Below the pieces are notes generated by a model, which was not told where the DNA came from, made no database searches, and worked only from the letters and a program-made list of their open reading frames with translations. Below, piece by piece: positions 1,425-64,000 of a stretch of 64,000 nucleotides of DNA (the first letter of the stretch is position 1; each line of letters starts with the position of its first letter). The position numbers were made by a program, and so were the translations under genes. This DNA is from Blasia pusilla (Eukaryota), in contig CM114271.1 in assembly GCA_050084515.1 (NCBI GenBank), positions 41,230,001-41,294,000 of the forward strand, in the 5' to 3' direction.

Positions 1425-2300
1425 ATTTTACTATACGACAACGTGGCGAGATTGGTCTAGAGGTATCCTAAGTTCTTGTCGGTATCTGCAGTACGCAGAT
1501 ATCAGCATACACTACTGGCCGATATCTCTTTAGTAGGGCCGCATGATATGGATAGAGTTTGCACCATTCATTTGGTGATTACTCGATGGCCATATAAAGG
1601 TGGTTCATCAGCTGGCCGAGGGTTTGGATTGCAAGATCCGAGGTCAGGGATGTTTTGGGAGATGTTGTGAGTAGTACAACACTTGCAGAAGAGTCAGACA
1701 TGTTCTACGACGTACATTTTGGAGAACTTGCCATTGTTGGGAGACACTCGTGCATGTGTGATGACGAGTATGCATCAGCTCAAGTCTTGGTTAGGACCTG
1801 CTGTGTTGTTGGATGCAGCGAGAGTTGGATCACGCGCCCATCGTCCATCGCTGTGGTGGACAAACTTGATACCATAAGAGGTACTGAGTCGAGCATACAA
1901 TGGAGTTCAGAGAGCACTACATCTCATAGTGGATGCTATTCTTGGCTTAGGCCGTCGATCTCACGTAGTGATGCGGAATGATAGACTACCGTTGGCGATA
2001 GCCAATAGGGTAGGGGAGTTGAGGATAGCCTTACCTACGTTGGTGAGCTTCCCAACATCCCATGCCTTTCATAAGGGAGGGCTAGGCATGATTAGGGATG
2101 AGGTGACCCAAGCATTGGAGGAGCCTATGGCATATGAGCGCGAGCGCGCCATGGGGTTCGCTACGGGTACTACGGCAATGTCTGGTATGACTGAGGTATC
2201 ACGGAGACACGTATTGGGGTATGCAATGGACATCAACTGTCTCACATGGATAGTCAGCCTAGGTATGGCTGAGCAAAGACATATGCGAGTATCATCCATG
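1425..2300 (+). pseudogene. Retrotransposon-borne DNMT3-like cytosine-5 methyltransferase domain (copy A, motif I missing)
   Basis: One frame with stops gives HLVITRWPYKG (motif IV, PC changed to PY), YILENL (VI), DAARVGSRAHRPSLWWTNL (VIII), ERERAMGF (IX), RRHVLGYAMD (X). Colinear with copy C 59842-60799. Confidence 0.85.
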
Positions 2301-4892
2301 CCGTCACGTCCACCTATTGGAGCATTGCCTACACGGTCTATAAAGGCATTGGCTGGCGGCGAGACAAGGAGAGATAGGCATCCATGGACTTCATGAAATG
2401 TCGTTCGAGCGGAGAGTGCGAAGGTGGCCAGAATAGCACATGTTCATTTTTTGGATGTAGAGCATGGTGTAGGAGGTCAGAATGGAATGGTTGTCGCGGA
2501 GGTGGCTAGGGTTGCTACATAGCAACCAAAGCCAAAGGTTGCGTCCTCTCCGAGTGAGGTCAGAATGGAGACTTGGGAGCTTGTGATAAGTCTCAAGTTG
2601 ATAAGAGGAGAGCGAGGGCAAGTTCATAGATTTCTAAGAGGGCATGTCAATTGTTTTGCCTTCAATATGAGAGACTTGGATCCATTGAAGGGTCTCGGGA
2701 TACGGATTGAGTTGGCTAGTGATATGCCAATCTTTCGTTGACCTTACAGGTATTTTGATATGGAGCGAGCCTTGATTCAAAGCAGGAGTCAGGACTTGTT
2801 GGAGGCAAGACTTGAGAAGTTATCATATGGGGAGTATGCATCTGCCACAGTCATGCCAGCGAAGAAGAATATGTATGGCAATTGGACGGATAGGCAGATT
2901 TGCGGGGATTACCGACCTATCAACCGACAGCCAAAGTCGGATCAATATGCCATGCCTACTCTTGAGGAGATCTTTGATGCGGTAGGGCATGCAAAGATCT
3001 TCAGTACTTTAGATCTCCGTGTTGGCTATCATCAGCTTCCTGTCAGGTTGGAGGAGAGGGAGAAGACAACATTCTAGGGGATAGATCGATTCAGGAGAGA
3101 TTTCTTATATCAATGGCGGTTCCTACCATTTGGGTTGAAAAACGTGCCCCTGGAGTTTCAGACACTGATGGATAGGATTCTCGCTAGCTTGGATTTTGTA
3201 CGGTGTTACATAGATGATATTCTTATATTCAGTTCCACGGTTGAGGAGCATGAGCGACATCTGGAGGAGGTATTTCGGAGATTGTAGTTACATGGACTGA
3301 AGTTACATCCAGGCCAGTGCAAATTCTTTCAGGAGCAGATTGAGTACTTGGGACACAACATGTACCCGAGTGGGTTAGGTGTTCAGGAGACGAAGCTGAA
3401 GGCTATTACACAGATTCCACGCTCTACACATGTGAGTAGAGTGCGAGCATTTCTAGGACTGGAAAACTTCTATCGACGGTATGTCAAGGGTTTCAGTGCG
3501 ATCGCCAAGTCTTTGACCTTGTTGACGAGACTTGATCAAGTTTGGTTGTGGGGAGATGATCAGGAGCGAGCATTTCAAGAGCTCAAGGATAGGTTGACAT
3601 CCTCATCCATTTTACATTGATTGATTAGGGATCGCCCATTCCACTTATATACGGATTGGAGCATGTTGGGTCTATGAGTAGTGCTTACTTAGAGGGATGA
3701 CAAGGAGAGGGAGTTTGTTATGGCTTACGCGAGCCGATCGAACAACATTGCAAAGGCAAAGTACAGCTCCTACGAGGGAGAATGCTTGGTTACAGTGTGG
3801 GCCGTGGCACATTCCAGGTGTTATTTATTTGGAAACCCTTTCATACTTATCACTGATCATCAGTCGTTGAGGTGGTTGATGAAGTCCGACAAGCTTACGG
3901 AAAAGCTTTCCATGTGGGCTCTATTACTACACAAGTATGAGTTCGAGGTTGTTCACAGGCAAAGTTGGCTGAGCCAGGATGCAGATGGGTTGAATCGTAA
4001 CCTATGTCTGAGTCAGAAAGATGACACAAGAGCTCGATGGCACGGAGAGAGTGATGAGGAGATGGTGCCCAGTTGGCATGCATCTTTGTTGGTTGACTAT
4101 GGTAGGTGAGCCGTAAATGATGACTCCAGTGGTGGGATCAAATGATGAGTCTTTGGATCTGGAGGTCAGTGAGGAGGCAACATGTGGTCGAGATATCCAT
4201 GATGACGTGGAGGTTGTGGAGTTCTTGCGTATTGGCGTCATAGCGAGCATAGTGAGTGTTAGGGAACGGGAACGGGATTGGATCCTACAGAGAGCCAGGA
4301 GGTACAGGTGGGAGGGGACTCACATTTTGCGGGTATGGGGAGATGGTAGGATACGAGTGGTACCTCATCCTTCCAAGCGAGCACGTGTAGTGCGACATGC
4401 CCATAAGGAGTTGGAGGCATTTTGGAGTAAAGCGTACTTACAACTTACTCCAAGTTCAGTATTGGTGACGGGGCATGCATACTTGGGTATAGTAGTTTGT
4501 GGCCACATGTATGGTATGTAACCGAGTGCAAGAATCATTCAATGCTCACTCGAGTTATAGGTTTAGGTTATCGGTGGAGTTTAGACTTCGTAGGACCTTT
4601 GCCATTGACAAGGCGTCATCACAGGTACGTGTTAGTCATGGTGGAGCATTTCTCCAAGTGGATAGAGTTGGTGGCACTACCGGACAAGGCGAGTGAGGGA
4701 ACAGCTTATGCGTTTCTAGATCGTGTGCTCAGTCACTTTGGTGCACCGGCGGAGGTGTTGACTGACCAGGGTACCGAGTTCAGGTGAGAGTTTCAGGCCT
4801 TGTACGATCAAGCGTTGATATATCACCGCACCACGTTTAGAGATATCGTGAGGCAGATGGGTTGGCAAAGATAGTAGTACAGACAATGAAGA

Positions 4893-10916: not shown

Positions 10917-11506
10917 AAAGAGAGGATTGCGCAAGTATGGCTTGCAGCGGGGGAAATTGAGGGAGTGGAACCTCTAGTTGCCATGGTTGGCTATAGCTTA
11001 TCGCTTTAGTCGACACGCATCCTTGGCGTCATTTTCACCATACTTTTTGCTCTTTGGGAGAGAGCTAGATTTACCTACAACTATTCGACGTGACATAGCA
11101 GAGGTGTTAGATCTTGATGATCCAGATGTGTGGGTACAAGGGTGTTCTCAACGGATAGAGATTTTTTATAGAGTTATGTCCATGGCCTTTGAGAACTTAG
11201 CTATTGCTCAGCATAAGGATACATTGAGGTACGCGAAAATTCAAGGAGGATGATATCATCCAAGAATTATGAGGTTTCATCCTAGAGATTACATGTATTT
11301 ACAACAAGGGGCATCCACGAGGCTAGATGTCACTCTAGGGCGTACGATCGTACGTATGAGCGAGGTATTACCGATCGGAGTCCTCATGTTGGAGGGACGG
11401 GATGGTATGGTTTGGAAGGATCATGTGCGTAATTGTGCGCCATATCACCTTCTGAAGGTGGACGGGACAGAGGATACGAGCTCGGCAGTGCTACTTGCAT
11501 GCTTGA

Positions 11507-24330: not shown

Positions 24331-26315
24331 AAGGATGTTAATGCCTATACTCTTTGTCTCTATAAAAAAAAATTAGATACTCTACTCTAGTATAATTATA
24401 TTAGATGATAATTATTACACACATACAATTCGTTGCAAAGCCTACATATTTTCATTATCCAATCAAAAAAATATTTTAACATAGAAACGAGACACACTTA
24501 TGTATGCTCATATATTTGAAAGGTCTTTAATCACGCTCTTACTAATGATTAGCACCCTCTAACTCCAAATACTCATCTATTCATACACACCATGACAAAT
24601 GTTTCTATGAAATACACTCAGAGAAAAAAGATCAAGTGTTGATTTGGCCTTGACATTATATTTCTTCTTGTCATCCATGTCACTTCAAATATAGATCCAT
24701 ATCTACCTATCATATGTACATTTAAGACATATCCATGATCTCTAGGGAAGCCTATAAGAGGGGAAGTCAAACATAAAATTTTCAATTCAACCTCCCAAAT
24801 ACCCATCATAAATTAGAGAGCATGTTGGCCATATTGTCCCAATCTCAAGCTAATTCACGGAACCACTACTAGGATTGGTTCCATTATTCCATCAATATTT
24901 GCAACGTGATATGGCGTGCAATAATGCACATGATCCTTCCAAAATAGACCATCACATCCCTCTTACAAGAGAACACTTGATAGCAATATCTTATGTACCC
25001 TATGAAAAATGTGTCATACTATAACATATAATATTATTAGATTTTTGTTCTTATAAGTATGCATAGTCCTCTCAATGAAACATCCACATTTGTTGTTGAT
25101 ATCCTCCTCCAATATTTGCATATCTCCATATATTTTGATATTGTACAATAGCCAAGTTCTGAAACATCATGGACACCATTAACCAGAAACCTCTCTACCC
25201 ATAGAATACATGCTCTCATCTATAAATCTAGATTGATAAGATTCAACACCTCTCCAATCTCATGATTTATGATAAATGCATGTAGATCTGGCTCTTGCCA
25301 AAGGAGAAAAAAGCATGGTGAAAAGGATGTTAAGGAGGCTTTTCAACTAAAATTATAGCCAAACACTAACCATAGTAGATATAAATTCAAATTTCCTATG
25401 TGAGTATTTAAAAAGCATACTTGCACAAACCCCTTAGTACCAAATGTATAACTCTCTTGGCATAATCATCTTCCTCTAAATTATCTCACGTTATCCGATT
25501 TTTTTTAATCAAGAATATTAAACAAGGCTTGAATTCCTCTCAAAAATTTTGATGCCCTAGTTGGTCAACATCTCTACTAGTGCGTCATATAACTCAACAC
25601 TGAATATAAGAATATATTTACTACTCCCTCACTTGCTTTGTCAAGCCATGCAACCAACTCTATCCACTTTATAAAATACTCAACCATCATTAACACATAC
25701 CGGTTGTGAAATTTCATCAAAGATAAGGGTTTGGGAAACTCCATCAATAATCTAAATCAATGAAGAAATAATAAATAATAAATGCAACTATGGAGCCATA
25801 GCGTTAAAGGATGCTTGTACTATTTCACATATCATACAGTTCGTAACAAATTGGAGTACATTTGTCTACATAACATGCCATCAATGTTGTGCCTTAGGCA
25901 AGCTATACATCTACTTATTAACTCCAAAATATCCCAAACATGGTCCGGGGAGTTTTTCTCCGGGAACCAGTGAGTTACCGGTCTTTGCCGTCCGGAGTCG
26001 GATTTTTGGAAATTCTGATCGGTAATAATTGGCTGTTTTGGAAGTAGGCGGTAAATTTCTGATGATTTAATCCTACTACGGAAAATTTCTGAATATTTCA
26101 ATATTTAAACGGCAAGTTTCCTATTCATTTGAAAGGCCCCGGTAAATATCCAGCAAACTCTTAATATAGCCGGAAAAAATTTTCTCTAGGAACTTTATTG
26201 TGCAATAATCCTCTCCAAAGTCCACAGTCCTCTCCTGAGCCCAAACTTCTCAAAGTCTGCAGAATTCCACCCTAAGCACCCTCATCTAAAAAATCTCGCC
26301 TCTCTTCTTGAAACT

Positions 26316-26572: not shown

Positions 26573-28833
26573 CTAAACATCTGAAACTGGTGCACTTGGA
26601 GAATCTTCTACAATTGCAGCCTCTAATATGGTGTCAACATCATTCACATATATCTCCGGGTTAGCATACACATACCTAAACTATGCAGAGTTTTTCCAAA
26701 GCACAACCGATTCAACCAATAGATCCTCATAGTCAACAATTTTCCCCTCCAAGGCTTTCCTAAGAACAACATCTAAATGCTTACTCAATAATCTATTACG
26801 ACACTTTGTCTTTATCATATTCTGCACAGAGAATGCTCTCTCACAAATCGCAGTACTCACGCATTGCACCGTAGCAATGTTGGTTAATACCAGAAAATTT
26901 GAGAACTTACATTGCAAGGATGGGCTCCAACTTACCATTTTCCAGAGATCTCGAAAGTTCCTGTCTTTCCATTCTGTTGAGGCCATGAGCTTAAATGACT
27001 GAAACTCTAGTTTCACAGCTCCTGAGTTCACAACAGCAGGTTGCAGGTTACCCGTGAGAGGAGCATCCCTTCCAAAATGTGCACAGAGATCATCTACATC
27101 CTTACAACCCCAACTGTTCAACCCTACTAGCCTAGAGGGCATATGCAGAGGATTCATAATCCTCATTGCACCAATTAGATTATTGTCCCTGAATCGATCA
27201 TGTAAGGCCGCACATAAATTCTCAGCATAACTCTTCTGGAAAGTTAGAACAGCCTGCAAATCCTTTCCAGTATGATCCCTCAACATTTCAATGCTGTGGT
27301 ACTTTCTACCCCTAATCTCAAATTGCAATCGTTTAAAATATCCTCCAGGGGATCCATAATCAGGTAAGAGATGATAACCTGTTGCCTCAGAGAATGTAGA
27401 AGCATTCAAGTCATGAATCTCCATCACAAAGTTCATTGTAATAGAGGCTACCTCAGAATTCAAAATACTACCAATGGTACTAACATCTACAAACTTATAT
27501 TGGAATACCTTACTCAAGTTAGCAAGTATAAACAAGATATCTGCCAAGAAGTACAATTGATAGATCATTTCAAATGATCTTAACTTGTTGTACATATTAG
27601 CAGCATTACCATCATTTTCGGAGCGGGGAATATCCCTGAAATATGTGAGGACAGACTCTAACGAGTCACACAAAGTAATCACGGCTTGCCATCGTGACAA
27701 CCAGCGAATTTTGTGATATCTTTTCATCACTCTCTGAGAATCATTCAACTTCTCCTGCAAAGCAACAAGCCCACACTTCCTCTTTGAAGATCTCATAAAA
27801 TATCTAGCTATAGCATTAAAGAGAGAGTCTATTTCTATAGATACATCTTTACACCCTGGTCCTTTGGCTGCTGTCAAAGCAGCAAGGTTGGTCCTATGTG
27901 CAACGCAATGTACAGAGAGCAAACAAAGGTTTACCTTATGCTTCAATTGACTTGCTACTCCATTCTGACTACCTACCATAGTGGAGGCTCCGTCAGATCC
28001 AAAAGGTACCATTTTAGAACTGTCTAGTCCAAAATCCTTGATCAACTCTATAAGATTGTTGGTAATTGCATTAGAACACTTCTCTGGACATTGCAACAAT
28101 CCTAGAAAAGAATTCTCCACTTGCCCCTCTTGTAAGTAAGTTGCAAATACCACCAGATGACCCGTTACTGAAATATTAGTATACTCATCTATCATTATCC
28201 CAAAGAAATGAGATTGTTGTACTTTTAAAAGAGTCCTTCTATGCAGAACCTGACTATTGTAGTAACACATCTTTGCACAACTCTTCTCATCCTGGTACAA
28301 AACTCAAGTAATGGGTGCATTTATCGACAGCAGCAACTTACACAGGTTCGGAAATTTGGCAAAAGCCATTGATTCCTTCGCAATAAAATAAGCACATTTA
28401 AACAATGTCAATAAGGCAGTGTCACAAGTACGATTAGAAGTGGCAATGGCCTTGGCCATGGACTTGTTTCCGACATTAGCAGCCCAAGAAAGCTTCATGT
28501 GCTCATTAGATTTACCATGATCAGTGCTATAAACTGTAAGGAAACCTTACAGTTTATAGCACCGTCCCTTACGAAAGAATTCTTGCCCTTCCCATGTCTA
28601 CAAACTTTACAAAATATTCTACCGGATTCTACATGGAACTCTATCCAATCAAATAAGGAGTACCAGACATCCTTCCAAGCCAATTGATTCTTCTCAATCT
28701 GGGCTTCAGAAGGAGAGCATGATCTGTTAACTTCATGTCCATCTGATGACTCTGAGCGGCTTCTATCCTCTGGAAGGTCATGGCCTACCTCTTTGTTTAA
28801 CATCTCGCTCATAGTTTGCTGTCTCTTAGCCAT
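26573..28833 (-). pseudogene. hAT transposase (ZNF862-like), disrupted
   Basis: N-terminal zinc finger (FDWIEF...IFCKVC), GIMIDE, FGSDGASTMVG, VHCVAH, IRW, STAICERAFS dimerisation region. Frameshift near 28497, stop at ~28304, probable premature stop at 26681. Confidence 0.88.
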
Positions 28834-42136: not shown

Positions 42137-43369
42137 TCACCACTCCATGGTGCCCACTCGGGGGCGTGTGGGCTCTTCCTCAGGTTCCATCTCTGGAAGA
42201 GGCTCTGGGGCTCTGAACTCCGGAGAGTCAAGATCTGCCAAGTTCTTCAAATCCACCATGGAAAGATCATCGAGTCTTCGGACGACAAGATCCGCAGCAC
42301 TAAGCTCGTACACAGGATGCTTCCCAGCAACAGCAACACATTTCATCAAGGCATCATGAGCCGCCTCAACGCTGGAGTTTGAGTTACCGAAAACAATGCA
42401 ACGCTCGGGTATGAAATTGAGGCGATCCGCAGCGTATTGAAACATTTCAGGATCGGGCTTTCCCCGATACGCATCTTCCGCGGAAATGACTTCATTGAAG
42501 AAGCCTTCCATCCCAACCGCCTCTATGGCCCTCTCAAGATACTTCCTGGGCCTAGTAGACGCGATAGCAATGGGAATATCGTATTTCTTCATGTTCGCCA
42601 CAAACTCCCTTGAACCCGGAACAAGCCTGTAAGTTCCCCCCTGCATCTCTTCGTAAAGCTCTTCTTTCCTCAAAGCCAGCCTCTTCATCTGACGGAAATC
42701 CCGGGTCCAGCAAAGCACTTCACTTAAGGCTTGTTCATTCTTCATCCCCTCCGCGCGTTTTAGGATGAAGGCTGGTGGTGGCCGCCTTCCTTCTTCTTCG
42801 GCCAGAGCCGTCCATGACTTCCTCTCCAAATCTGCATCGTCTTCGACAATTACCCCCTCCCACTCCAAAATGACCCCCAACCATCCGCATCCCATGCGAT
42901 GCTGACGAAGAAGTGGATTCTGTAAAGAAATATCATCGGCCCTATTTTCGGGGAATAAGGACTTGGGATTCAGTCCAGTTGCAAAGTAAGATACTTCCAG
43001 TGAGTCCTTCGTTTTGTCTTTGGGCGTCTGAGCCTCTTCTGTAACATCCATAGAGAAAGCACGCACGGAGCCCTCTATCTTCATCGTCCTTCTGTTCACG
43101 TAAATTACGATAGGAGGATAAGCTCTCGAACTTCGACTTCTCAGATCAAACTGTGATTGCAGCCCTACCTTTGAAGGGAAAGATCCAAGCGATAAACCCG
43201 AGACGGAACAGTGGCTCGAAGACATCCTAACACCTACGGCAATTGGAGATAAGGAGCACGCCTCAGAAATTCTAACGTTCGCCGAGCAGGACTCGACATT
43301 TGAAGCCTGACTTGAGGACAAGTGAGCCATGACTCCTTGCCCCAGGGTCGCCAGCCGCACAGCCATCAT
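42137..43369 (-). CDS. PYRP2: Plastid HAD-like phosphatase, 5-amino-6-(5-phospho-D-ribitylamino)uracil phosphatase family (riboflavin pathway)
   Basis: Intact 410-aa ORF from the ATG at 43369 (the track's 43393 start is non-ATG). Ser-rich transit-peptide-like N-terminus; RMGCGWLGVILEWEGVIVED, EEGRRPPPAFIL, GKPDPEMF, PERCIVFGNSN. Confidence 0.88.
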   Translation of the reverse strand: MMAVRLATLGQGVMAHLSSSQASNVESCSANVRISEACSLSPIAVGVRMSSSHCSVSGLSLGSFPSKVGLQSQFDLRSRSSRAYPPIVIYVNRRTMKIEGSVRAFSMDVTEEAQTPKDKTKDSLEVSYFATGLNPKSLFPENRADDISLQNPLLRQHRMGCGWLGVILEWEGVIVEDDADLERKSWTALAEEEGRRPPPAFILKRAEGMKNEQALSEVLCWTRDFRQMKRLALRKEELYEEMQGGTYRLVPGSREFVANMKKYDIPIAIASTRPRKYLERAIEAVGMEGFFNEVISAEDAYRGKPDPEMFQYAADRLNFIPERCIVFGNSNSSVEAAHDALMKCVAVAGKHPVYELSAADLVVRRLDDLSMVDLKNLADLDSPEFRAPEPLPEMEPEEEPTRPRVGTMEW

Positions 43370-44803
43370 GTTGTTAACAGAGATGATCCACAATTTGTGA
43401 AGTCGAAGCTACGACAGAGACCACCGGGCAGAAGGGGGACCAACAGTTCGATGAAGGATTGCTGTTGCAACACACGAGGAACTGATCCGAGTAAAAATCA
43501 CTTGAATGATCAATCTGACAGACACATAAAGGGTTCCAAGCAATCTTGTATATGACTAGGGCCTCAAACCACTGCACACGTTTGCACTACTTCTTGATAC
43601 CAGAAAATCTGAAACAAATCTGCTCAGCCTCTTCTCACTGCAAGCCGGCTGGGATAGATATGACCTCCGAAGTCGAAACGAAAAAGCTGTACCCCGAGTC
43701 TCCCCAAGCACCCCACAAACATGTGTCTACACAAGACAGGCGAAACAGGCAAGGACTTCTTATCCACTACCTGCACAAGCACGACACCCTCGCCGCGCGC
43801 ACAATGCTTGCTGTTGAAAAATGAACACAGGTGACCGCAACGCTTGAATCTCCGCGAAAATAACGCACTTGGTCAGATCGCTACGCGTAGAGAGACAAAA
43901 CATTCCCCGGCACCCGTCCCCGTCCTTCCTGCAAGCATGTGCACACACCACCAGAATGTCACCGTGAAGATCAAGGCACCCGACCTTCCCAGATGCGAAC
44001 ACAGGAGATGAAGACCTAGGACTAAAGACCAGTGAAACTTCGTGTGCGGGCGCTTGCCCACCAATTGATGACGGATGCGCGAGACAGACGGACCATGGAA
44101 CTCGCGAATAAGTCAAAATGCCGCCTCCCAAAAAGTAAAGTGATAGGCGTTTGGACCCCCAGGAGGAAAAACAAATATCACATCTCCAACTATTGAATTG
44201 AAACCTTAGAGCTAAAAGTGAAAATTTTCTTTTTTCACTTCCTAGGACGTGTCCAAGAGACGCTTTGATGAGAAATGAATCTGGACCTACAGAAGACGGC
44301 TGTGAAAGAAACCAAATTTGGAATTAGACGGTACTCTCGTGAAATTCAATAAATAGAATCCATAAAAGGGGAGAAATGTGACTTCAAGAACGAATTGACT
44401 TAAACTCGTAATTAACATTGAGGTCTTGCAAACCGGTCTACTATGATATGAAGGAGAAGGTTTGGCTACGTATTCTGACTTTCTGTTTTGGCATGGTTGA
44501 GTCCACGTACTAGGGCAAGTAATGGCCAACAACACATTGGAACTTATGATGGCCCTAAAATCTATATTATAATTTGAGGAGGGGGGTATTACTTTATTTA
44601 ATAGTTCCCATCCCGAATAAGTGAAGCCCTCCTTTAAAAGGAAGTCTCTTTTAAAAACTTGAAAATAGTTGATGAAATTGATATCCAAAACTTTGGTAAA
44701 TAAATCCAATGATGATGCTCGCCAATCTTTTTTTCATCTCAAATTTGGTAAATAACCTTTCCCATAGTATATTTGCCATTTCAATATTATTCCAAAGTTC
44801 ATT

Positions 44804-53554: not shown

Positions 53555-55405
53555 ATGGAAATAGCCAAAAGGCTCTTCCCCCAAAAATAGCCTCCAAATA
53601 GTAACATGCGAGCACAAGTTACCAGGTGATCACTGGCTGAGTCAATATGTCACCTAGCCAAAAATAACAAAGAAGGAGTATCGAGCCATAAATGACATTG
53701 TCGACGCAACGGACTAGTCTTCAATCTTATCCTACATCTTAGGACAAAGTTACACTCAAACCTCCTGCTGACCCTCTATGCTATTGACGCCGTTGAACTC
53801 TACCTGTCGGCTAACTAAGTTTTGACAGCTCTCGTGCGCATACACATCGCTGATCATATCCATACCACACAACACCAATCTTCCCAACATATGGGTAGAT
53901 CCACATACATGCCAAAAATGAACTTATGCATATGCACCGAGACCACACAACCGCCCCCCTAGTTGGTAGGTGGGTCCCCCTAACTCCATATAGCACACAT
54001 GTATCTACATGACATGATCTGTTTCCCTATACACATCTAAGACATAGCCATCATCCCATGGGAGACATGACATGTGACATCCTCGAGAACAACCATCACA
54101 CCAACATGGTGGTTGCACCCCTTGCAAACTCACAAAATATACACCTCAAGCCTGGAGATACCACTACCAAACTTGGATCCACTGCCCCGTCCACATTTGG
54201 AAGATGACATGACGCATAGTTGCGCACATAATCCTTCCAAACCATACCATCCCATCCCTCCAATATGAGGACTCCGTTCAGTAATACCTCGCACTCTCGC
54301 AAAATCGTGCGCCCTGCAATGACATCTAACGTCATGGATACCGGCTACTATAAATACTCATAAAATCCATGATTGAACCTCCTAATACCTAGATGATAAT
54401 CTCCTCCATGAATGATCAAGTACCTCAATATGTCCCTATGCTAAGCAATAGCTAAGTTCTTAAATGCCATAGGCTCGAGCATAGGCTTAACTCTACAAAA
54501 AACTCCGCCCTTTGAGAACAAGCTTGTATGCACACATCTAGGTCATCAAGATCTAACACCACTGCCATGTATCAAGTAGTTGCAGGTAAATCCGGCTCTC
54601 TCCCATAGAGCAAAAAATATGGTGAAAATGATGTTAAGGATATGTGCCGATTGAATCGATACCCCATAGCCAACCATGACAATTGTAGGTTCCACTCTCT
54701 GAAATATCCTCATTACAAGCCATACTTGCGTAACCCTTTCTTCACCGTGTATTCTACTCTCTCCTCCAACCCATCCACCTCATGATGATCTCAGGATGTG
54801 GAGTGGTGATCTATCAACGCCTGATCACACAAGGCTTAAAGCTCTCCCCTCAACTTGGTACCCTGGTCAATCAACACCTCCACCGGTGCAACAAAATGAC
54901 TAAGCACATAATCAAGAAATGCATTAGTTGCTCCCTCACTCTCCTTTTTTGGTAGTGCCACCAACTCTATCCACTTGGAGAAATAATCCATAACCAACAC
55001 GTACCTGTGACGTTGCCCCATCAATGGCAAAGGTCCCGCAAAATCTACACTCCACCAATAACCTAAACCCATAATCGGAAAAAGACGTAAATGCAGAGTG
55101 GGAGCATTGAAGGATGCCCGCACTTAGTCACATACCATACAGCTGGCTACAAACTGATGAACTTTAGTATGCATGCCGCGCCACCAATACTGAACTTGGA
55201 GTAAGCTATAAGTACGCTTTACTCCAAAGTGTCCAAACTACTCGTAGGCATGTCACCTCGCATGTCACACTACACATGCTCGCTGGGAAGGATGAGGCAT
55301 CACTCTTATCCTACCATCTCCCCATACCCGTATAATATGTGTCTCCTCCCACCGAAACCTCATGGCTCTTTGTAGGATCCAATTTCGCTCCCTAACACTC
55401 ACTGT
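53555..55405 (-). mobile_element. DNMT-Gypsy family copy B, 3' portion (integrase, PHD, B1, start of A2)
   Basis: WSVDFAGP, DYFSKW, GRTILRE...WKDYVRN, LRCIFC; then G-tracts, B1 (53830-53950) and A2 starting at 53827. Cut at 55405 by copy C. Confidence 0.9.
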
Positions 55406-57667
55406 TGTCACGTCTTTTAGGATAGATCGGTGAGATCTAGTAGAGCGCCTTCATGAGTAGTGGAGGACAAGCTTAGTAGGTTGAGGATGACCTGTTGAGG
55501 CCCCAAGATTCCCCTTCGTTTCGGCTCATTTGGAGCCATATTGAGGAACTTACTATTTTAGATAAATACCATTTTGAGTATATGATCAAATTTCTATTTT
55601 TGGTAAGTGACCCTTGACCACCTACATGAGGTCAAGAGCCAAGGAGGTGACTTGGGAGAATAGTTTACCATGGAGAGATCTTAGGAGAGGGGAGGGGTAT
55701 ACCTCAAGGAGAGAGAGCTTGAGAGCTCATTCTCTCTTTGTTGAACCTCTTGGCATGGGGCGGTGGAACTATGGTCCCTTACCTTGTGAGTGTAACCCAC
55801 GCCTCTCATTAGGAGAGTGGGTTTGGTTTGACATGAGAGAGAGTGCATACCTTTGAGAGCTATGGTGTGAGATGGTGTAGAGAGAGATTGGATCTTACTT
55901 TACAAAGAGAGAATGAGAGAATGAGAGAGTGAGAGAGCTTCATGGGGGAGCTCGCTGGTCACCCACTATTTTTGCAGGTTGGGGACCGTGTTCCCCTTTT
56001 CAGCGGCTCATGGGAATGCTCACCGGAGCAAGGGATGCTTTGATTGTTCTTTGCATTTGCCGATTTTTTGTGTGAAAGAGTGGCGCACGGAAGCGCTGCC
56101 CAATTTCTGATAGGGATTGATTATGGGGGTGGGTTGCCCCATAATCAATCCGGTGCTCTCGGGAGCACCATATAACTTGCTGATTTGTATTATTACAGGT
56201 TTACATTTTGGTTGGGAGAAATCAGCGCGGAAGCGCTGCCGAATTTTATGTAGGAGAAAGAGACATTGGGCTCTACCATAGTCCCGGTCAATTTTTACTG
56301 GAATGTCTAATTCTAAATATTTTTTGATACCGTCGTAGATCGTGAAGCTGTGCACGTTATGCAACAAATAATGCACAATTTGGAGTTGTGAGTAAAAATT
56401 TATGTTAAATTGTATGTTAATGCACAATTTGGAGTTACGAGTAAAAATTTATGTTTGGGTTAAATTGTTCAAACCCTAAACCATAGTCGTAGTCACCGTC
56501 ACCGGTCAACGGTCAACCGTTACCATTGACGGTCCGTTATCACCATCAACGGTCCATCGTCCATCGTCCACCGGCCATCGTCGGCTGTTGCTGTTGCCCA
56601 GCGTTGCTCAGAGCCGCATTCGGCCGTTGTCCACCCTTTGGTTGCCATTTCCGCCATTACGGAGTGGAGGGTCTTCCACGACATTCGTTGATTCTTTGAC
56701 TTGCGTCGCCACCACGTACTTTGTTTTGGCCGCCACCGTCATCAAAGTTTCGTCGTCGACCAGTGATGGCAGATGACCTCCATTATGGTGTTTGAGTTTT
56801 GATTTCATGCTGCTATGTTGTGATTGGTAGCCGCTTGATGACGATCGAGTACCGTGCCGTGACGCCGGTAGCCGCAACGCGCCGCCGATTGCCGCGCCGT
56901 GCTGCTCGTGGCTGCACTGCACCGTCTCGATCGCGGAGTCCCACCGTTATTGTGGAGCAGAGTGTGGGTTTATTGTTGATTGAGGAGGATATGCCGCCGA
57001 GTGCTGCATCCCACTATCGAGGGCCATGCCGTTTGTAGCCATTCCGTGCCGCCTGCAACGCCGTACCGTTCTGCTGGAACCGCACTGTCTATTGAGGAGT
57101 TTTGAGCAACGTCAATACGGGAGGAGTATGACTTACTCATTGGAGGAGTTGTCTCCATGACCGAGTTGGGGTTAAGATTTGGAGTTGCTTAGGAGCGACA
57201 TCGACATGTGTTCAGGTTACCCATTCTGATCCTTTACCCTGCACGCGTGAGGGATTCTGGGATTTGGGTAGTTTATTTGGGGATATTGGGTTGTGTGGAT
57301 GTTGAGAGCATCATTTATGTATGTGGTTTAGGGGACATAGACCTGTGTGGGATGTCCGGAGTTGAGGGTAGGTTATTGATGAGATGATAGCCTGGTCGAT
57401 TTTCCGTACCACGCCGCTTGTTGCTGCACGTTACACGTCTCGGGGAGGGAGAGTGTAGATTGAGTGCTGCATGTTTGGGATGAGTGATTGAGGGATTACT
57501 TGCGAGGTTGAGAGTGATTGTGTGAGAGGGGCACGAGGGCCAACACAACGTCCTTTCAGGATTTTGAGAGGCGAGGTAGTGGACCTGAGAGTAGCTCTGG
57601 AGGGTTTACCCGGAGTGGTGCAAGGTTTCAAGGGTCTCCAGGTGAGAGACCACCTTGATCTCCTTTT

Positions 57668-58900
57668 GTGTCATCTTCAGACAAGGGGGAGCGTGTAGAG
57701 GAGTTTGTGAGCACATCACCACACATTGTGAGTGGTCCTACCAGTTGGGCGTACGAGATGGACGATCGGGGTAGAGGACCACGTAGGTTTTCAGGTGCAG
57801 TAGGCACGATTAAGTTGCACGATTTCATAGCAGAGTTTAGGAGTTGGTGCGACTCCCATCAGGCCAGGAACTCTAGAGAGTTCAACCCGTTTACAGCATG
57901 GAACGGTATGTTCCAGCATTTAGAGGGGGCATCCATGGACGATTACCATGAGTTCTCCCACAGATATGCGAAGGAGATTGAGGCATGGCGATTGTATTAT
58001 GACCCACATTATGTGTCATGGACAAAGCCGTTCCCAGATCAGGAGGAGGAGTCAAGAGAGGCTACTTCCTCTTCCACTAGTGATGTTTTAGGAGGGGTCA
58101 CTCGCAATAGAGCAGTTGCACTGTCTAGTCGGGTTCGTCCCAGGTTCAACCCCGTGGTTGAGTTCTTTGCTGAGTTGAGGGCGAGCTACCAGGGGGTACG
58201 GACGGAGAAGTTTTGGAGCATCCACGACGTCCAAAGGCGCCTAGGTGAGAGTTTGTGTTAGGCTTATACTCGCTTGTGCCGGTTGATCAACGTCACTCAG
58301 GGGGTGACAGAGGCTCAGGCTATGCAATCATGGTAGGTGATGCTGGACCGGATCTTGCGGACACGGATGCAGGAGGGGGTGCTTGTTATGAACACCTCCC
58401 CTACGTTGAGAGATGTTTTTAGGACCGTCAATAATATTGAGTGCAACATGGCGGAGGAGAGCGTAGCCACCATGGGTTTTGGGCGAGAGTTGTCACGATT
58501 TCCTACACTACCTATGCAGCAACGTGGACTCCGAGATAGGTCGACTGTGGCACCACGAGCTCAGGGAGGATACCGAGGGGCCATGCCACAGAGACCTGCG
58601 CCTTCATATGTGGCTCAGTAGCAGCCGTCTACTATTACTTGTTGGTCATGTGGTGAAGCCCATCATCAGCGTGATTGCATTCGTCAGGGTCATGGACATG
58701 TGCCTCAGCATGGAGAAGGAGAAGGTGCTGTACCAGGAAGTTATCAGTGTGACTATTGTTAGAGGTCTGGTCATACACGCGCCAGGTGTTTCAGTTTACA
58801 TCTTGAGTTACGTTCAGAACAAGGGCCAGAGAGGGCACCAGAGCAAGTCATCGGTCCGGGTGGGCCTAGAGATCGTGCACGAGGTGGTCCCGTTGGGGGA
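57668..58900 (+). pseudogene. Gag-like region of copy C with two zinc knuckles
   Basis: One frame with a few stops; CWSCGEAHHQRDC (~58640) and CDYC*RSGHTRARC (~58748). Confidence 0.75.
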
Positions 58901-59841
58901 CGAGGAGCTGTAATTTCCCGACAGGGTGGTGGAGCTGCCTGTGGAGGAGGTAGAGTCCCACCACCTAGAGGCGTCGAGGGAGATGCCGAGCGTGAGGCTA
59001 GGATGGAGATACATCAGCTACAGGAGCAGATTGCCGCTATGGCATTGAGATTACCCGATGTCGGATCCATGGCATCGACATCATATGGAGCAGCCAAAGA
59101 TATGGAGGATCCTGGTTGGATGTGCGGGGTTGCCCAGATGGAGGCAGCCGCAGTTGTGACGTGAGGAGGATTCAGAGGATTGGGCTTGACTAGAGCTAAT
59201 GTGGAGCGTTGTCCATTCCGGATACAGACATCCTTGGGTGAGTGAGTACCACATAGTATATCACCCGACAGGAGGTCATGGTGAAGATTCGCTCCGAACA
59301 TCCTATAGATGAGTCCATGGTGCGAGCTAAGGCGATAGTGACTGATGCAGAGTCCTACGACGTCTTGGTTGGTGGAGGAGTGTTATACCCGATCGGGTTT
59401 TCCCTGGATTTCTAGGAGGAGTTAGCGTCCTACAGATCAGGATGGCATTCAAGTGGTGGGTGCCTTAGCTCATTACCTATTTGATTCACAAGTGCAGTGA
59501 TCGAGCGACGGCCAGGAGAGGTGGCGACCTTAGCAGCATTTAGCAGTGCCATCACTTGGCCTAGTGATTTGATTGAGGGACATGTCCATGCAAAGGATAC
59601 TCCCGTTCTTGACATTTCTATGGAGAGGAGTGTTATGGTAGCCGCATCATTGCGTGGAGGAGAGGTGCCGTTGTGGGGCTCAATTGAGGAGCTTCGACGA
59701 TTGGTAGATGAGCACGTGCAGACCGCGTGGAGCAAGGCGTTTGCATCGGAGCGTGACGGGTCTGAGGACCCCGAGGTAGTAGGGAGTGCTAAGATGACAC
59801 CCTTGGATACCACACATATTGTGTGGTGTATCCCGGAGGAG

Positions 59842-60799
59842 GGTATTTGAGTGTTAGATCTCTTTGGAGGGATTAGCACCAGGTTAGCTGATGTTTTGCA
59901 AGCAAGAGTGCGAATGCAGCAGTACATGTATGTGGAGAGTGATGATGTTGCGAGGCGAGTCTTACTACGACATGTGGTGCAGTTACACCTACGTTTTCCC
60001 GACTTATTGTCTGCGTCCGCGGTACAGGGATACTAGAGTTCCCTACCGAGGGATATTTTGTTGCTGGGGGCGCAGGACTTAGATTGGTTAGGCACTTTTG
60101 ATTTGGTTATTGCCGGTTGGCCATGTCAAGGCCAATCAAGTGTTGGACAAGGCAGCGGGTTGGCTGACACTAGGTCCAGGTTGTTTTGGGAGATGTTGAG
60201 GGTCTTACGGGAGTTGCAGGAGCATCAGTCTCGTTCTCCAGCCTACATTATGGAGAATGTGGCAATCTTAGAAGACTCCAGGTCACGGATGGTGGCGAGT
60301 GCTCATCAGGTGGGTGCTTGGATTGGCCCAACAGTGTTCTTGGATGCGGCGAGTGTAGGTTCTAGAGCCCACGTCTATGGTGGACCAACTTGGTGCCCCA
60401 TGCGGTGTTACGGAGGGCGTATGCGAGAGTGGAGCGCCTCTCCCATTTGTTAGTGGATTCCATTCTGGATCCAGGTCGTTGCTCACAGGCAGTGAGGCAC
60501 GATGATGACCACCGTTGATTGTGGTCAACAGGGTAGGCAATCCGCGGGCAGCCTTTCCCACGCTTGTGAGTTTTTTCGCATCCTATGCATACAAGGAGGC
60601 CGGTGCTGGCTTTGTTTGGGATGACCACGTTCAGAGGTTGGTGGAGCCCAACGCCGACGAGAGAGAGCGGGCGATGGGATTTCCCACAGGAATGACGGCA
60701 GTACCGACAGTATCAGAGGCATCACAACGCCATGTCTTGGGTCAGGCGATGGACATGAACTGCTTGACATGGATCTTCAGCTTGGGAGTGGCTGAGTAG
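59842..60799 (+). pseudogene. Retrotransposon-borne DNMT3-like cytosine-5 methyltransferase domain (copy C, all motifs present)
   Basis: VLDLFGGIST (I), YVESD (II), FDLVIAGWPCQG (IV, catalytic PC), SRLFWEMLRVL (V), YIMENV (VI), DAASVGSRAH..WWTN (VIII, frameshifted), ERERAMGFP (IX), QRHVLGQAM (X). Two stops and one frameshift. Confidence 0.92.
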
Positions 60800-63700
60800 C
60801 GTCGGATGAGATCGTGATAGATCACAACGGTTGCGTTGGTGAGCCCCATGCCTATCGAGACGATGGAGGCAGTGGCTGGGGGCGAGACCCGAGGAGATCG
60901 ACACACCAGGGGAGATTGGGAGAGACACCCTTGGAATTCTTGGGATGTTTTGTAGGTACGCCAGGAGATGATAGCCATAACATCGAGCGTGGTTCCGGGT
61001 ATTGCATGTGGAGGAGATTGGAGTTTGTACTTGGCTGCAAGAGAGCGGTCGAGTGTCGTTATTTGAGACGGGGTTGCACCATAGCAAGCACGGATATCCG
61101 CGCCGGAGAGTCCTACCGTAGGCAAGATGGAGACTTGGGATCCAGATATGGGCCCTAAGTTGGCAGGAGGAGAGCGGCGCCGAATACATCAGTTCCTTAG
61201 GAGTTATAGGAGCTGCTTTGCGTTTAGCATGGAGAATTTGGGTACGCTGAATGGACCGGGGATCGATCCCCATTGAGTTGTTGAGTGATACGCCGATCTT
61301 CTGACAACCCTACAGGTACAGTGATATGGAGAGGGCTCTGATTCAGAGTAGGAGCCAGGACTTGGTTGGAGAAGGACTAGTGGAGATGTCGCATGGGGAG
61401 TATACATCTGCCACTGTCATGCCCGCCAAGAAGGATGTGCATGGCAACTAGACGGATAGGCGGATGTGTGGGGATTACCGACCTATCAATCGGCACACGA
61501 AGTGCGATAGGTATGCCATGCCCACCCCTGAGGAGATCTTTGATGCGATTGGTCACGCAAAGGTCTTCAATTCATTGGATTTGCGAGCCGGATACCATCA
61601 GCTGCCTATCAGATTGGAGGACAGGCCGAAGACGGCATTTTGGGGCATCAATCCTCACGGGAAGGATTGTTTGTATCAGTGACGATTCTTACCATTTAGG
61701 TTAAAGAACGCCCCAACTAAGTTTCACACGATCATGGATAGAATCTTGGCTGGTCTGTATTTTGCTACGTGTTATATTGATGACATTGTAGTCTTTAGCG
61801 CCACGGTTGAGGAGCATGAGCGACATCTAGAGGAGGTATTTCGATGATTGCAATTACATGAGCTAAAGCTACATCCAGGCAAGTGCAAGTTCTTCTACGA
61901 CGAGATTTAGTACTTGGGTCATACGATATACCTAGGGGGCCTTGGTGTTCAGAAACCGGAGGTAGAGGCTATCTCATGCATTCCACACCCTACAGATGTG
62001 AGTCGTGTTCGTGCATTCATGGGATTGGCGAACTTCTATTGGCGGTACGTCAAGGGATTCAGTTTGATTGCAAAGCCGCTGACCTTGCTGACCAAGGTGG
62101 ATCACGAGTGGCAGTGGGGGGATGAGCAAGAGCAAGCATTTCAATTGCTCAAGGGCAGGTTGACGTCTGCGCCCATCTTGAGGAGACCGAGATCAGGGGG
62201 CGTCCTTTCCAGTTGCACACAGATTGGAGCATGTTGGGGCTTGGAGCGGTGCTCATCTAGCATGATGATGAGGGTAGAGAGTTTGTGATGGTTTACACTA
62301 GCCGCTCGAACAACGATGCAGAGGCGAAGTACAACTCGTATGAGTGTGAGTGCTTGGCTGCAATGTGGGTTGTCGCGCATTTCAGGTGTTACTTATTCGA
62401 CAACCCCTTTACCATCATCATTGATCATCAACCACTGAAGTGGTTGATGGAGTCTGACAAGCTTACAGGGAAGCTTGCGAGATGGGCTTTGTTGTTGCAG
62501 GAATATGATTTTCAAGTGGTACATAGACCTGGGCCGCTCAACCAGGATGCAAATGGGTTGAGTCGTAACCCATGCACGAGTCAGCAAGATGCGACTAGAG
62601 CTCGATGGCATGGAGAGAGTGATGAGGAGTCAGTGCCAGGATGGCACGCGTCAGCCTATTTAGGCATGTTGGCTATGGAGAGCCAGAGTGTGGAGACTTT
62701 GACGGCGAGGTCTAGTGGAGAGTCCTTGGATCCCGAGGCCAGTGAGGAGACCACAGGCGGTCGAGATATTCATGATGATGGAGTAGTCTTGGAGTACCTT
62801 CGAACTGATAGCGTTGCGAGCACCGTGGGTGCTAGAGAGCGGGATCGAATCCTACATCGGGCCAAACGGTTCTGTTGGGAGGGGACACATGTTTTGAGGG
62901 TTTGGGAGGATGGTAGAGTACACAAAGTGCCGCATCAATTGTAGAGAGCATGACTAGTGCAACATGCCCACGAGGAGTTGGGTCACTTTGGGGTGAAGCG
63001 GATGTACAACTTGCTCCAGATTCAGTATTGGTGGCAAGGCATGCAGACCGATGTTTAGCAGTTTATTGCCAAGTGCATGGTGTGTGATCGGGTCTGAGGA
63101 TCGTTCAATGCTCCGACTTCACAGTTGCATCCATTACCGATCATAGGCTTAGGGTATATATGGAGTTTGGATTTTGCAAGACCTTTGCCTTTGACGGAGC
63201 GTCACAATCATTATGTGTTGGTAATGGTCGAGCACTTCTTGAAGTGGATTGAGTTGGTTGCATTGCCTGACAAAGCGAGTGAGGGAGTAGCTTATGCCTT
63301 CCTTGACAGAGTGTTGAGTCATTATGGCGCACCGGCTGAGGTGTTGACAGACTAGGGTACGGAGTTTCGCGGTGAGTTCCTGGCCTTGTGTGATTAGGCA
63401 CTGATCAACCACCGCACGACTTCGCGAGATCATCTCGAGGTGGATGGATTAGCGGAGAGAGTTGTGTAGACGGTGAAGAGGGGTTTACGCAAGTACGGCT
63501 TGCAGAGAGGTCACCTAGGAGATTGTGACCTCCAATTTCCATGGTTGGCGATGGGATACAGATTTAGAAGGCATGCATCCTAGGCGTCTTTTTCACCATT
63601 CTTGCTACTTTATGGCCAAGAGCCAGATTTACTTGCGGCCATTCATCGAGATGCTGGTGATGTGCTGGACCTTGATGACCCAGATGTATGGATGCGAGCA

Positions 63701-64000
63701 TGTTCTCAGAGGGTTGAGTTGTTTCGGAGAGTGATGCTCATGGCGTTCGAGAACTTGGCGATTGCGCAACATTGGGATACGTTGAGGTATGCGACTATTG
63801 AGGGTGGTGGTTATCGACCAATTATCCGGAGGTTTCATCAAGGAGATTATGTCTACTTGCAGCAGACGGCACCAACGACGTTGGATATGACTGCAAGGCG
63901 CACTATCTTGAGAGCGCGTGACGTTTTTCCATCAGGTGTTCTTTTGCTAGAGGGACGTGATCGTATGGTATGGAAGGAACATGTGCGTAATTGTACGCCA

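Follow-up and report, generated by a model that had tools for sequence, protein, structure and literature searches.

Based on the analyses reported here, we conclude that the examined stretch of Blasia pusilla DNA (64,000 nucleotides of contig CM114271.1, assembly GCA_050084515.1; called the window below) very probably holds two copies of a retrotransposon family that carries its own DNA methyltransferase (DNMT). Copy C (57773–64000) would be a decayed, non-autonomous Ty3/Gypsy-type copy, and copy A (1440–4892, probably continuing at 10918) an older, 5′-truncated copy of the same layout, both belonging to the streptophyte Gypsy-DNMT3 lineage. Intact relatives have a single gag-pol frame with the order gag (CCHC), protease (PR), DNMT3-like C5 methyltransferase, reverse transcriptase (RT), RNase H (RH) and integrase (INT). 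The lineage was first described in the alga Klebsormidium nitens and, judged by the proteins found in databases, appears to occur in Closterium, in liverworts (Marchantia, Calypogeia) and in Sphagnum mosses as well. In both copies, the pol order PR-RT-RH-INT with Gypsy-type RT and RH points to Ty3/Gypsy. All features of the two copies are listed in Table 1.

In copy C, positions 59851–60799 of the plus strand encode a C5 cytosine methyltransferase domain without introns, in which motifs I, IV, VI, VIII, IX and X follow each other in canonical order. In the numbering generally used for this enzyme family, these are motif I (VLDLFGGIST), motif IV (IAGWPCQGQS), motif VI (YIMENVA), motif VIII (GSRA and RLWWTN, split by a frame change), motif IX (AFPTLVSFF) and motif X (VLGQAMDMNC), with the sequence ADERERAMGF between the last two. 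The Pfam profile PF00145 matched the piece 60037–60450 with an E-value of 3.6e-12 and 46.8 bits (curated cut-off 22) and the read-through 59851–60369 with an E-value of 5.4e-12 and approx. 46 bits, again above the cut-off; the match spans only profile positions 61–120 of 324. The reading frame is interrupted by a TGA directly upstream of the domain (59848–59850), an internal TAG (60034–60036) and frame changes near 60371, within motif VIII, and near 60508. The original prediction, made from the letters alone, had claimed an ordered, intronless set of C5 methyltransferase motifs between a protease remnant and the RT of this copy; all of these motifs were found, and the profile match above the cut-off corroborates the claim.

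The same prediction had likened the domain to DNMT3, in canonical rather than the permuted DRM order, and this was borne out by the comparison with solved enzymes. Best matches in sequence and fold were the catalytic domains of animal DNMT3A, DNMT3B and DNMT3C and plant DNMT3/DRM. The copy C piece matched DNMT3C (1.1e-5), DNMT3A (4e-5) and then M.HhaI (6e-4) in the PDB. The intact Calypogeia relative P0006 (database relatives are given by P numbers) aligned with DNMT3A at 8e-11, co-linearly across motifs I–VIII and again at motifs IX–X, whereas it aligned with tobacco DRM (4e-7) only in the permuted register of the latter. A family profile (A1), built from 14 sequences and run against PDB chains, ranked DNMT3A first (1e-18), followed by DNMT3B (2e-16), DNMT3C (7e-16), NtDRM (8e-12), DRM2 (5e-8), M.HhaI (2e-7) and DNMT2 (4e-5); no DNMT1 or chromomethylase (CMT) chain was found at E ≤ 0.01. 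For the fold, an AlphaFold model of the relative P0003 was used instead of the broken window copy (predicted local distance difference test score, pLDDT, 87). When this model was compared to the PDB with Foldseek, the top 50 ranks shown were all DNMT3A/B/C (best E-value 7.5e-19), with template modeling (TM) scores by target of 0.76–0.83 for chains of catalytic-domain length and 0.40–0.54 for longer chains, and it superposes on DNA-bound DNMT3A/B structures. By this ranking and the predicted compact fold, we class the element domain as DNMT3-like with a canonical, non-permuted motif order. Identity to DNMT3A is approx. 20–23% in the structural alignment, and motif IV reads PCQ in the element but PCN in the aligned DNMT3A. 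Unlike the animal and plant enzymes, the element domain sits within a retrotransposon polyprotein. The chromatin-reading PWWP and ADD domains which precede the catalytic domain in animal DNMT3A/B were not found: the linker between PR and DNMT in copy C matched 0 Pfam families, and Marchantia P0004 matched PF00145 only. Some DNMT3 members are known to have no identifiable companion domains (Sarre et al., 2025).

Copy A carries the domain at the same place. Over 343 residues in a single frame, its DNMT has 56% identity with Marchantia P0004 (tblastn, E-value 4e-106). Further, the DNMT (1440–2468) and the RT-RH region (2574–4061) share one frame, and residues 840–1624 of P0182 align to 1536–4001 in that single frame (tblastn); therefore, the domain lies within the pol frame. 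Compared by blastn, copies A and C are 72% identical in nucleotides from RT to integrase and 64.6% in the DNMT.

To estimate selection, the codons of copies A and C were paired via a Marchantia reference, as a single pair. The resulting omega values, which are rough since dS is saturated and the codon alignment is protein-guided, were approx. 0.19–0.24 for the DNMT (263 codons, dN 0.34–0.36, dS 1.44–1.81), 0.11–0.20 for the RT (213 codons, dN 0.14–0.16, dS 0.68–1.26) and 0.14–0.23 for RH (176 codons, dN 0.24–0.26, dS 1.04–1.78). Identity of the two DNMT sequences by codon position was 0.61, 0.81 and 0.45. The low omega of the DNMT together with these codon-position identities indicates that most of the divergence between the two lineages accrued under constraint on the DNMT. 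Hence the domain appears to have been under purifying selection comparable to that on RT and RH while the A and C lineages diverged, with a dN/dS well below 1.

Protein databases were searched for relatives of the domain. A search for longer proteins gave 18 relatives among 2238 candidates at 47–65% identity, the named ones being from Marchantia polymorpha, Calypogeia fissa and Sphagnum troendelagicum. An exhaustive representative search returned 1567 proteins at E ≤ 1e-3, of which 324 had E ≤ 1e-10. Profile searches added Sphagnum tenellum and Marchantia paleacea; no proteins of vascular plants, hornworts or Physcomitrium were among their results, which is a weak negative, as element open reading frames (ORFs) are often absent from annotations. 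A near-length profile search for host DNMT3/DRM references yielded element fragments only. A protein atlas search with the Marchantia DNMT part gave generic PF00145 clusters, phage ones included, and nothing beyond Pfam. At least 15 annotated “genes” of Marchantia polymorpha are copies of the element (e.g., Mp_4g09160, Mp_8g17980, Mp_6g11220, Mp_2g26090), some of them named DNA (cytosine-5-)-methyltransferase or CCHC-type domain-containing protein in UniRef.

Mapping the domain order of the relatives with probes cut from relative proteins separated two pol architectures. Class 1, to which the window copies belong, has the order gag-PR-DNMT-RT-RH-INT and was found in Marchantia (many gene models), Calypogeia, Sphagnum fallax, several Closterium strains, K. 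nitens and unnamed contigs. Two class-1 proteins from such contigs, P0182 (2138 aa) and P0177 (2327 aa), are single ORFs with matches to zf-CCHC, DNA_methylase, RVT_1, RNase H and integrase; P0177 additionally has an Asp_protease_2 match at the place which corresponds to the protease remnant of copy C. In the K. nitens protein KFL_009030040 (P0210), PR (79–183), DNMT (313–566) and RT (779–928) are followed by RH and INT. Some close relatives in Marchantia, Calypogeia, Sphagnum and Closterium form long open frames. In class 2 (RT-RH-DNMT-INT), by contrast, the DNMT follows RNase H and precedes the integrase; the latter is often followed by a PHD finger, and in one case a G-patch is present. Members are P0037, P0044, P0055, P0094, P0095, P0184 and approx. 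40 more, many of them unnamed environmental proteins; the only named ones are “pol” proteins of Scenedesmus sp. PABB004. Their RT, RNase H and integrase families are those of the window family, and their DNMT is 32–45% identical to the window piece. In the DNMT tree as well as in the RT tree described below, however, a strongly supported branch separates them from the window family. The 116 database rows whose DNMT spans 240 residues or more fell into 42 of class 1, 44 of class 2 and 30 unclassed; rows with a shorter DNMT span, Sphagnum included, were left out of classing and trees. A “DNMT-to-RT linker” probe was rejected as evidence for the junction: it turned out to be the conserved N-terminal part of the RT, which is present in both classes.

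The architecture of copies A and C matches a published one. In KnitGypsy-Dnmt3 of K. nitens, an intronless Dnmt3-related domain resides in the Pol ORF of a Gypsy element with DIRS-like repeats, its Ka/Ks is below 0.2 (approx. 0.2 in the window family), and the copies were placed in a divergent Dnmt3-related clade (de Mendoza et al., 2018, Nat Commun 9:1341). KFL_009030040, whose domains follow the same PR-DNMT-RT-RH-INT order and which clusters with the window copies in the DNMT and RT-RH trees, is presumably one of these copies; the main text of the 2018 paper gives no gene identifiers. Thus, the element does not qualify as a new kind, its architecture being the published one and its DNMT and RT falling in one clade with the Klebsormidium protein; in addition, gene models for Marchantia, Calypogeia and Sphagnum are already public. 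What differs is the host. The window copies group with liverwort copies, their DNMT is only approx. 40% identical to the algal clade, and their PR-DNMT linker cannot be aligned to that of KnitGypsy-Dnmt3. Further, de Mendoza et al. (2018) assigned the capture to the lineage of K. nitens, whereas we observe a broader distribution. Neither Marchantia nor Physcomitrella is mentioned in the main text of that paper, and Sarre et al. (2025) and a 2026 preprint mention such elements in “streptophytes (Gypsy-DNMT3)”, citing it. The original prediction knew of no description in a land plant, and none of bryophyte copies was found in the literature searched either; supplements and subscription journals were outside the reach of this search, and supplementary DNMT trees may include such sequences. 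Three observations appear to be unreported: that the lineage exists in liverworts and mosses, where it has long open frames and is transcribed; that DNMT and RT have a congruent history from Klebsormidium through Closterium to bryophytes; and that there is a large sister class, class 2, in which the DNMT stands between RNase H and integrase. No text describing the latter was found, although no search was aimed at it. Other retroelements also have a cytosine methyltransferase inside or appended to pol. In Symbiodinium, this is SymbioDIRS-Dnmt3, with domains that show de novo CG methylation activity in yeast (de Mendoza et al., 2018); Cymbomonas and Euglena have the “EpiLTR” elements (bioRxiv 10.64898/2026.05.21.726589). 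In contrast to the Gypsy-type window family, the former are of the DIRS class, and the latter resemble chromoviruses, their DNMT being located 3′-terminally in pol. The DNMT of the EpiLTRs also has another origin, being sister to DNMT4.

In active copies, the DNMT would be translated as part of Gag-Pol, enter the virus-like particle together with the RT and methylate the cDNA after its synthesis or the DNA just inserted; in this way, new copies would bear marks like those of host heterochromatin from the start. We propose this tentatively as a possible main role in active copies; neither copy in the window is capable of it. Alternatively, the domain might no longer be a DNA methyltransferase in this lineage, and might methylate RNA, bind DNA without catalysis or act as a decoy for the host silencing machinery. 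In yeast, the K. nitens domain did not methylate de novo, an outcome regarded as inconclusive by the authors, who raise RNA methylation for another element class; human DNMT3B, however, was likewise negative in the same assay (de Mendoza et al., 2018). In an alignment of 88 element DNMT domains (44 rows of each class), the near-invariant Pro of the catalytic Pro-Cys motif is replaced by Glu (ECQ), with the Cys kept, in 16 of the 44 class-1 and 21 of the 44 class-2 rows. On the other hand, the catalytic Cys (40 of 44 class-1 rows), the motif VI Glu (44 of 44), two motif VIII Arg and the motif I Gly are each kept in approx. 40 or more of the 44 rows per class, the bryophyte clade including copy C keeps PCQ, and the P0003 model superposes on DNA-bound DNMT3A/B structures, as mentioned above. 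We consider it unlikely that the domain no longer acts as a DNA methyltransferase in this lineage.

Phylogenetic trees were calculated for both enzymes. For the careful DNMT tree, 55 rows were hand-picked from 118 and analyzed with IQ-TREE under LG+C20+F+G4 (unrooted; supports as ultrafast bootstrap/SH-like approximate likelihood-ratio test, SH-aLRT). All 17 class-2 rows fell on one side of a 100/98 branch, the window copies were placed in a 12-row clade with Marchantia and Calypogeia (100/99), and Klebsormidium and Closterium formed a clade each (100/100 in both cases); a quick tree and a FastTree tree agree with this result. The RT-RNase H tree, also unrooted, comprises 33 rows, i.e., 31 de-duplicated database rows holding RT, RH and DNMT, and the two window rows. 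Here, a branch with an SH-aLRT of 100 separates the window copies and the five class-1 rows from all other rows, and the branching order is Klebsormidium, then P0149/P0182, then Marchantia with the window copies. Since the two trees are congruent, DNMT and RT diverged together. A single capture of the DNMT is likely.

A land-plant Gypsy element could also have taken up a host bryophyte DNMT3 independently, its likeness to the Klebsormidium element then being convergent. Recurrent capture of DNMTs in general is documented (de Mendoza et al., 2018), and our trees hold neither DNMT-free Gypsy elements nor host DNMTs, so that a DNMT tree which follows the host phylogeny could also come from repeated captures. 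In jackhmmer searches, the PR-DNMT linker was detected only in the bryophyte clade and the neighboring unnamed P0026 clade, and no homology was detectable in Klebsormidium or Closterium copies; because of this lack of detectable homology between bryophyte and algal copies, a single capture is likely rather than certain. The linker may be a lineage-specific N-terminal extension of the DNMT. Nevertheless, the insertion point between PR and RT is identical in Klebsormidium, Closterium and bryophytes, the RT-RH tree unites these elements with the same internal order as in the DNMT tree, and the DNMTs of all 42 PR-DNMT-RT rows are on one side of the branch from the RT-RH-DNMT-INT class. A separate capture is improbable in our view, and we keep to the single capture as the likelier reading. 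In its widest form, this reading would comprise one capture of a DNMT3-like domain by a Gypsy element before the split of Klebsormidiophyceae and land plants, vertical carriage under selection into liverworts and mosses at high copy number with transcription to this day, an active enzyme which pre-methylates its own cDNA or insertions, and an origin of the RT-RH-DNMT-INT elements of chlorophytes in the same capture, the domain having been relocated within pol. As a whole, this scenario is doubtful.

To assess abundance and transcription in the source organism, sequencing runs were compared to the window. Five runs from two studies each contained approx. one quarter of its sampled words, and four runs (one DNA, three RNA) were mapped on 56000–64000. 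None of the runs listed as containing the stretch is recorded as RNA, and small word shares in air-metagenome runs and in runs of other organisms were left out of the analysis. The DNA run gave 61,346 contig pieces at ≥95% identity in this region, 18,827 of them at ≥99%; in the source organism, the family occurs in high copy number, including many close sister copies. The three RNA runs gave 74, 92 and 96 reads from 10–12 million records each, all but one of them 95–99% alike to copy C and with the first mate mostly on the minus strand, which in usual stranded libraries corresponds to sense RNA. Thus, sister copies, rather than copy C itself, are weakly transcribed from the sense strand. It is very improbable that the arrangement is an artefact, be it through chance nesting of a host DNMT3 pseudogene or of another element in a Gypsy copy or through algal contamination of the assembly, which the original prediction had named as a danger: the window is indeed a mosaic of nested elements (Copia inside copy A, an inverted integrase fragment beside copy C), but two diverged copies have the same layout, with DNMT and RT of copy A in one frame, natural single ORFs run from gag to integrase with the DNMT inside, runs from several studies of the organism contain approx. 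one quarter of the sampled words of the stretch, one of them at very high depth when mapped, and both DNMT and RT have their closest relatives among liverwort proteins. The window also has an ORF for a HAD hydrolase with similarity to streptophyte clusters; taken with the trees, this ORF indicates a bryophyte-grade land plant.

Several observations weigh against the explanation given at the outset, in addition to the yeast assay, the composition of the trees and the linker discussed above. Both copies are dead, and nothing in the window is functional. Over its whole length, copy C is broken by five or more frame changes and by over 20 in-frame stops, and the pieces of its DNMT outside the profile match (N-terminal 59851–60033, C-terminal 60509–60796) gave 0 Pfam families each at E ≤ 1. 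According to the run tables, 12 single-base length differences distinguish copy C from sister contigs; as some of them adjoin frame breaks of copy C, these breaks need not be family-wide. Only one RNA read reached ≥99% identity to copy C. In copy A, motif I is absent, WPYKG stands in place of PCQ, i.e., Tyr replaces the catalytic Cys, Ser replaces one motif VIII Arg, and PF00145 had no match at E ≤ 0.1. The claim that copy A holds the same domain at the same position, as a heritable module, stands for position and inheritance (the tblastn match lies in the RT frame, both window copies which retain this part of pol carry the domain, and 42 database proteins share the order), although the domain of copy A itself is dead. 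No pair of long terminal repeats was found in the window for either copy; copy C exits the window, and copy A is truncated at its 5′ end. Finally, the placement within the DNMT3 clade relies on the PDB ranking and on de Mendoza et al. (2018), our trees containing no host DNMT3, DRM, CMT or MET1.

Retrotransposons with the class of enzyme that hosts use to silence them have been known from dinoflagellates and one charophyte alga. With the lineage and its domain position shared by Marchantia, Calypogeia, Sphagnum and the organism of the window, the question of what the enzyme does for the element moves into land plants, which include a model liverwort with mutants, methylomes and transformation. 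The results suggest that the capture is older and more widespread than the “K. nitens lineage” of 2018, and green algae have a second, larger class in which the domain is placed elsewhere. If a single old capture and an active enzyme were both confirmed, the domain would be among the oldest element-borne epigenetic enzymes, and Marchantia a tractable host for testing such enzymes. For annotation, the finding implies that many bryophyte gene models with methyltransferase or CCHC-type names are element copies, which could inflate counts of host DNMTs and should be excluded from them.

Table 1. Features of the element family in the window (positions of the whole stretch; HSP, high-scoring segment pair).
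Feature	Positions	Strand	Evidence
Copy C gag, two CCHC zinc-knuckle remnants, 5 in-frame stops	57773..59182	+	tblastn, Marchantia P0004 residues 9-451: 41% identity, E 4e-83
Copy C aspartic protease remnant, frame change near 59240	59180..59415	+	tblastn, P0004 654-673 and from 682 on
Copy C PR-to-DNMT linker, approx. 120 residues (121), ends in TGA	59485..59850	+	inside P0004 682-1056 HSP
Copy C DNMT3-like C5 methyltransferase domain, motifs I-X	59851..60799	+	PF00145; best PDB match DNMT3C 1.1e-5; motifs (see text); tblastn
Copy C reverse transcriptase, frame change near 61265, 5 stops	61136..62198	+	PF00078 E 3.6e-17; tblastn P0191 696-996, 59-63% identity
Copy C RNase H	62165..62899	+	PF17917 E 5.1e-24, PF17919 6e-10; tblastn P0191 985-1190
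Copy C integrase, continues past window end	62900..64000	+	PF00665 on 63098-63352; tblastn P0182 1506-2059 to 62213-63952
Copy A DNMT domain, 5′ truncated before motif I, 4 stops	1440..2468	+	tblastn P0004 923-1261; blastn to copy C 64.6% identity
Copy A RT and RNase H, 6 stops	2574..4061	+	PF00078 2.7e-28, PF17919 1.3e-25, PF17917 2.5e-25
Copy A integrase, N-terminal pieces	4156..4892	+	tblastn P0182 1736-1885; blastn to copy C extends to 4892
Copy A integrase, probable continuation past nested insertion	10918..11472	+	blastn 63476-64000 vs 10918-11442, 71% identity; tblastn P0182 1904-2083
Integrase fragment, third inverted copy of the family, 8 stops	54220..55405	-	blastn 70% identity to 62822-63990; inverted repeats I1, I2; tblastn P0182 1699-1957

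No Pfam gag or zf-CCHC match was found for the gag of copy C, and its protease remnant itself has no Pfam match. The PF00665 match of its integrase (E-value 1.8e-6, 28.5 bits) is below the cut-off of 32.6.

Besides the third copy of Table 1, blastn detected a further integrase-only fragment of the family at 24912–25743 (minus strand). One of these two minus-strand fragments adjoins the 5′ side of copy C, head to head. A Copia-type RT at 8990–9559 (plus strand; PF07727, E-value 8e-44, RVT_2 type) is probably a nested insertion in copy A, since it is located in the gap which splits this copy. An open frame of 539 residues at 26681–28300 (minus strand) has a weak DUF4371 match (E-value 8e-6, below the cut-off) and may be the remnant of a hAT-like transposase. 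The sole apparent host gene seen in the window is an intronless ORF of 422 residues at 42137–43405 (minus strand) for a HAD-family hydrolase (PF13419, E-value 6e-20), which resembles streptophyte clusters of chloroplast 5-amino-6-(5-phospho-D-ribitylamino)uracil phosphatase.

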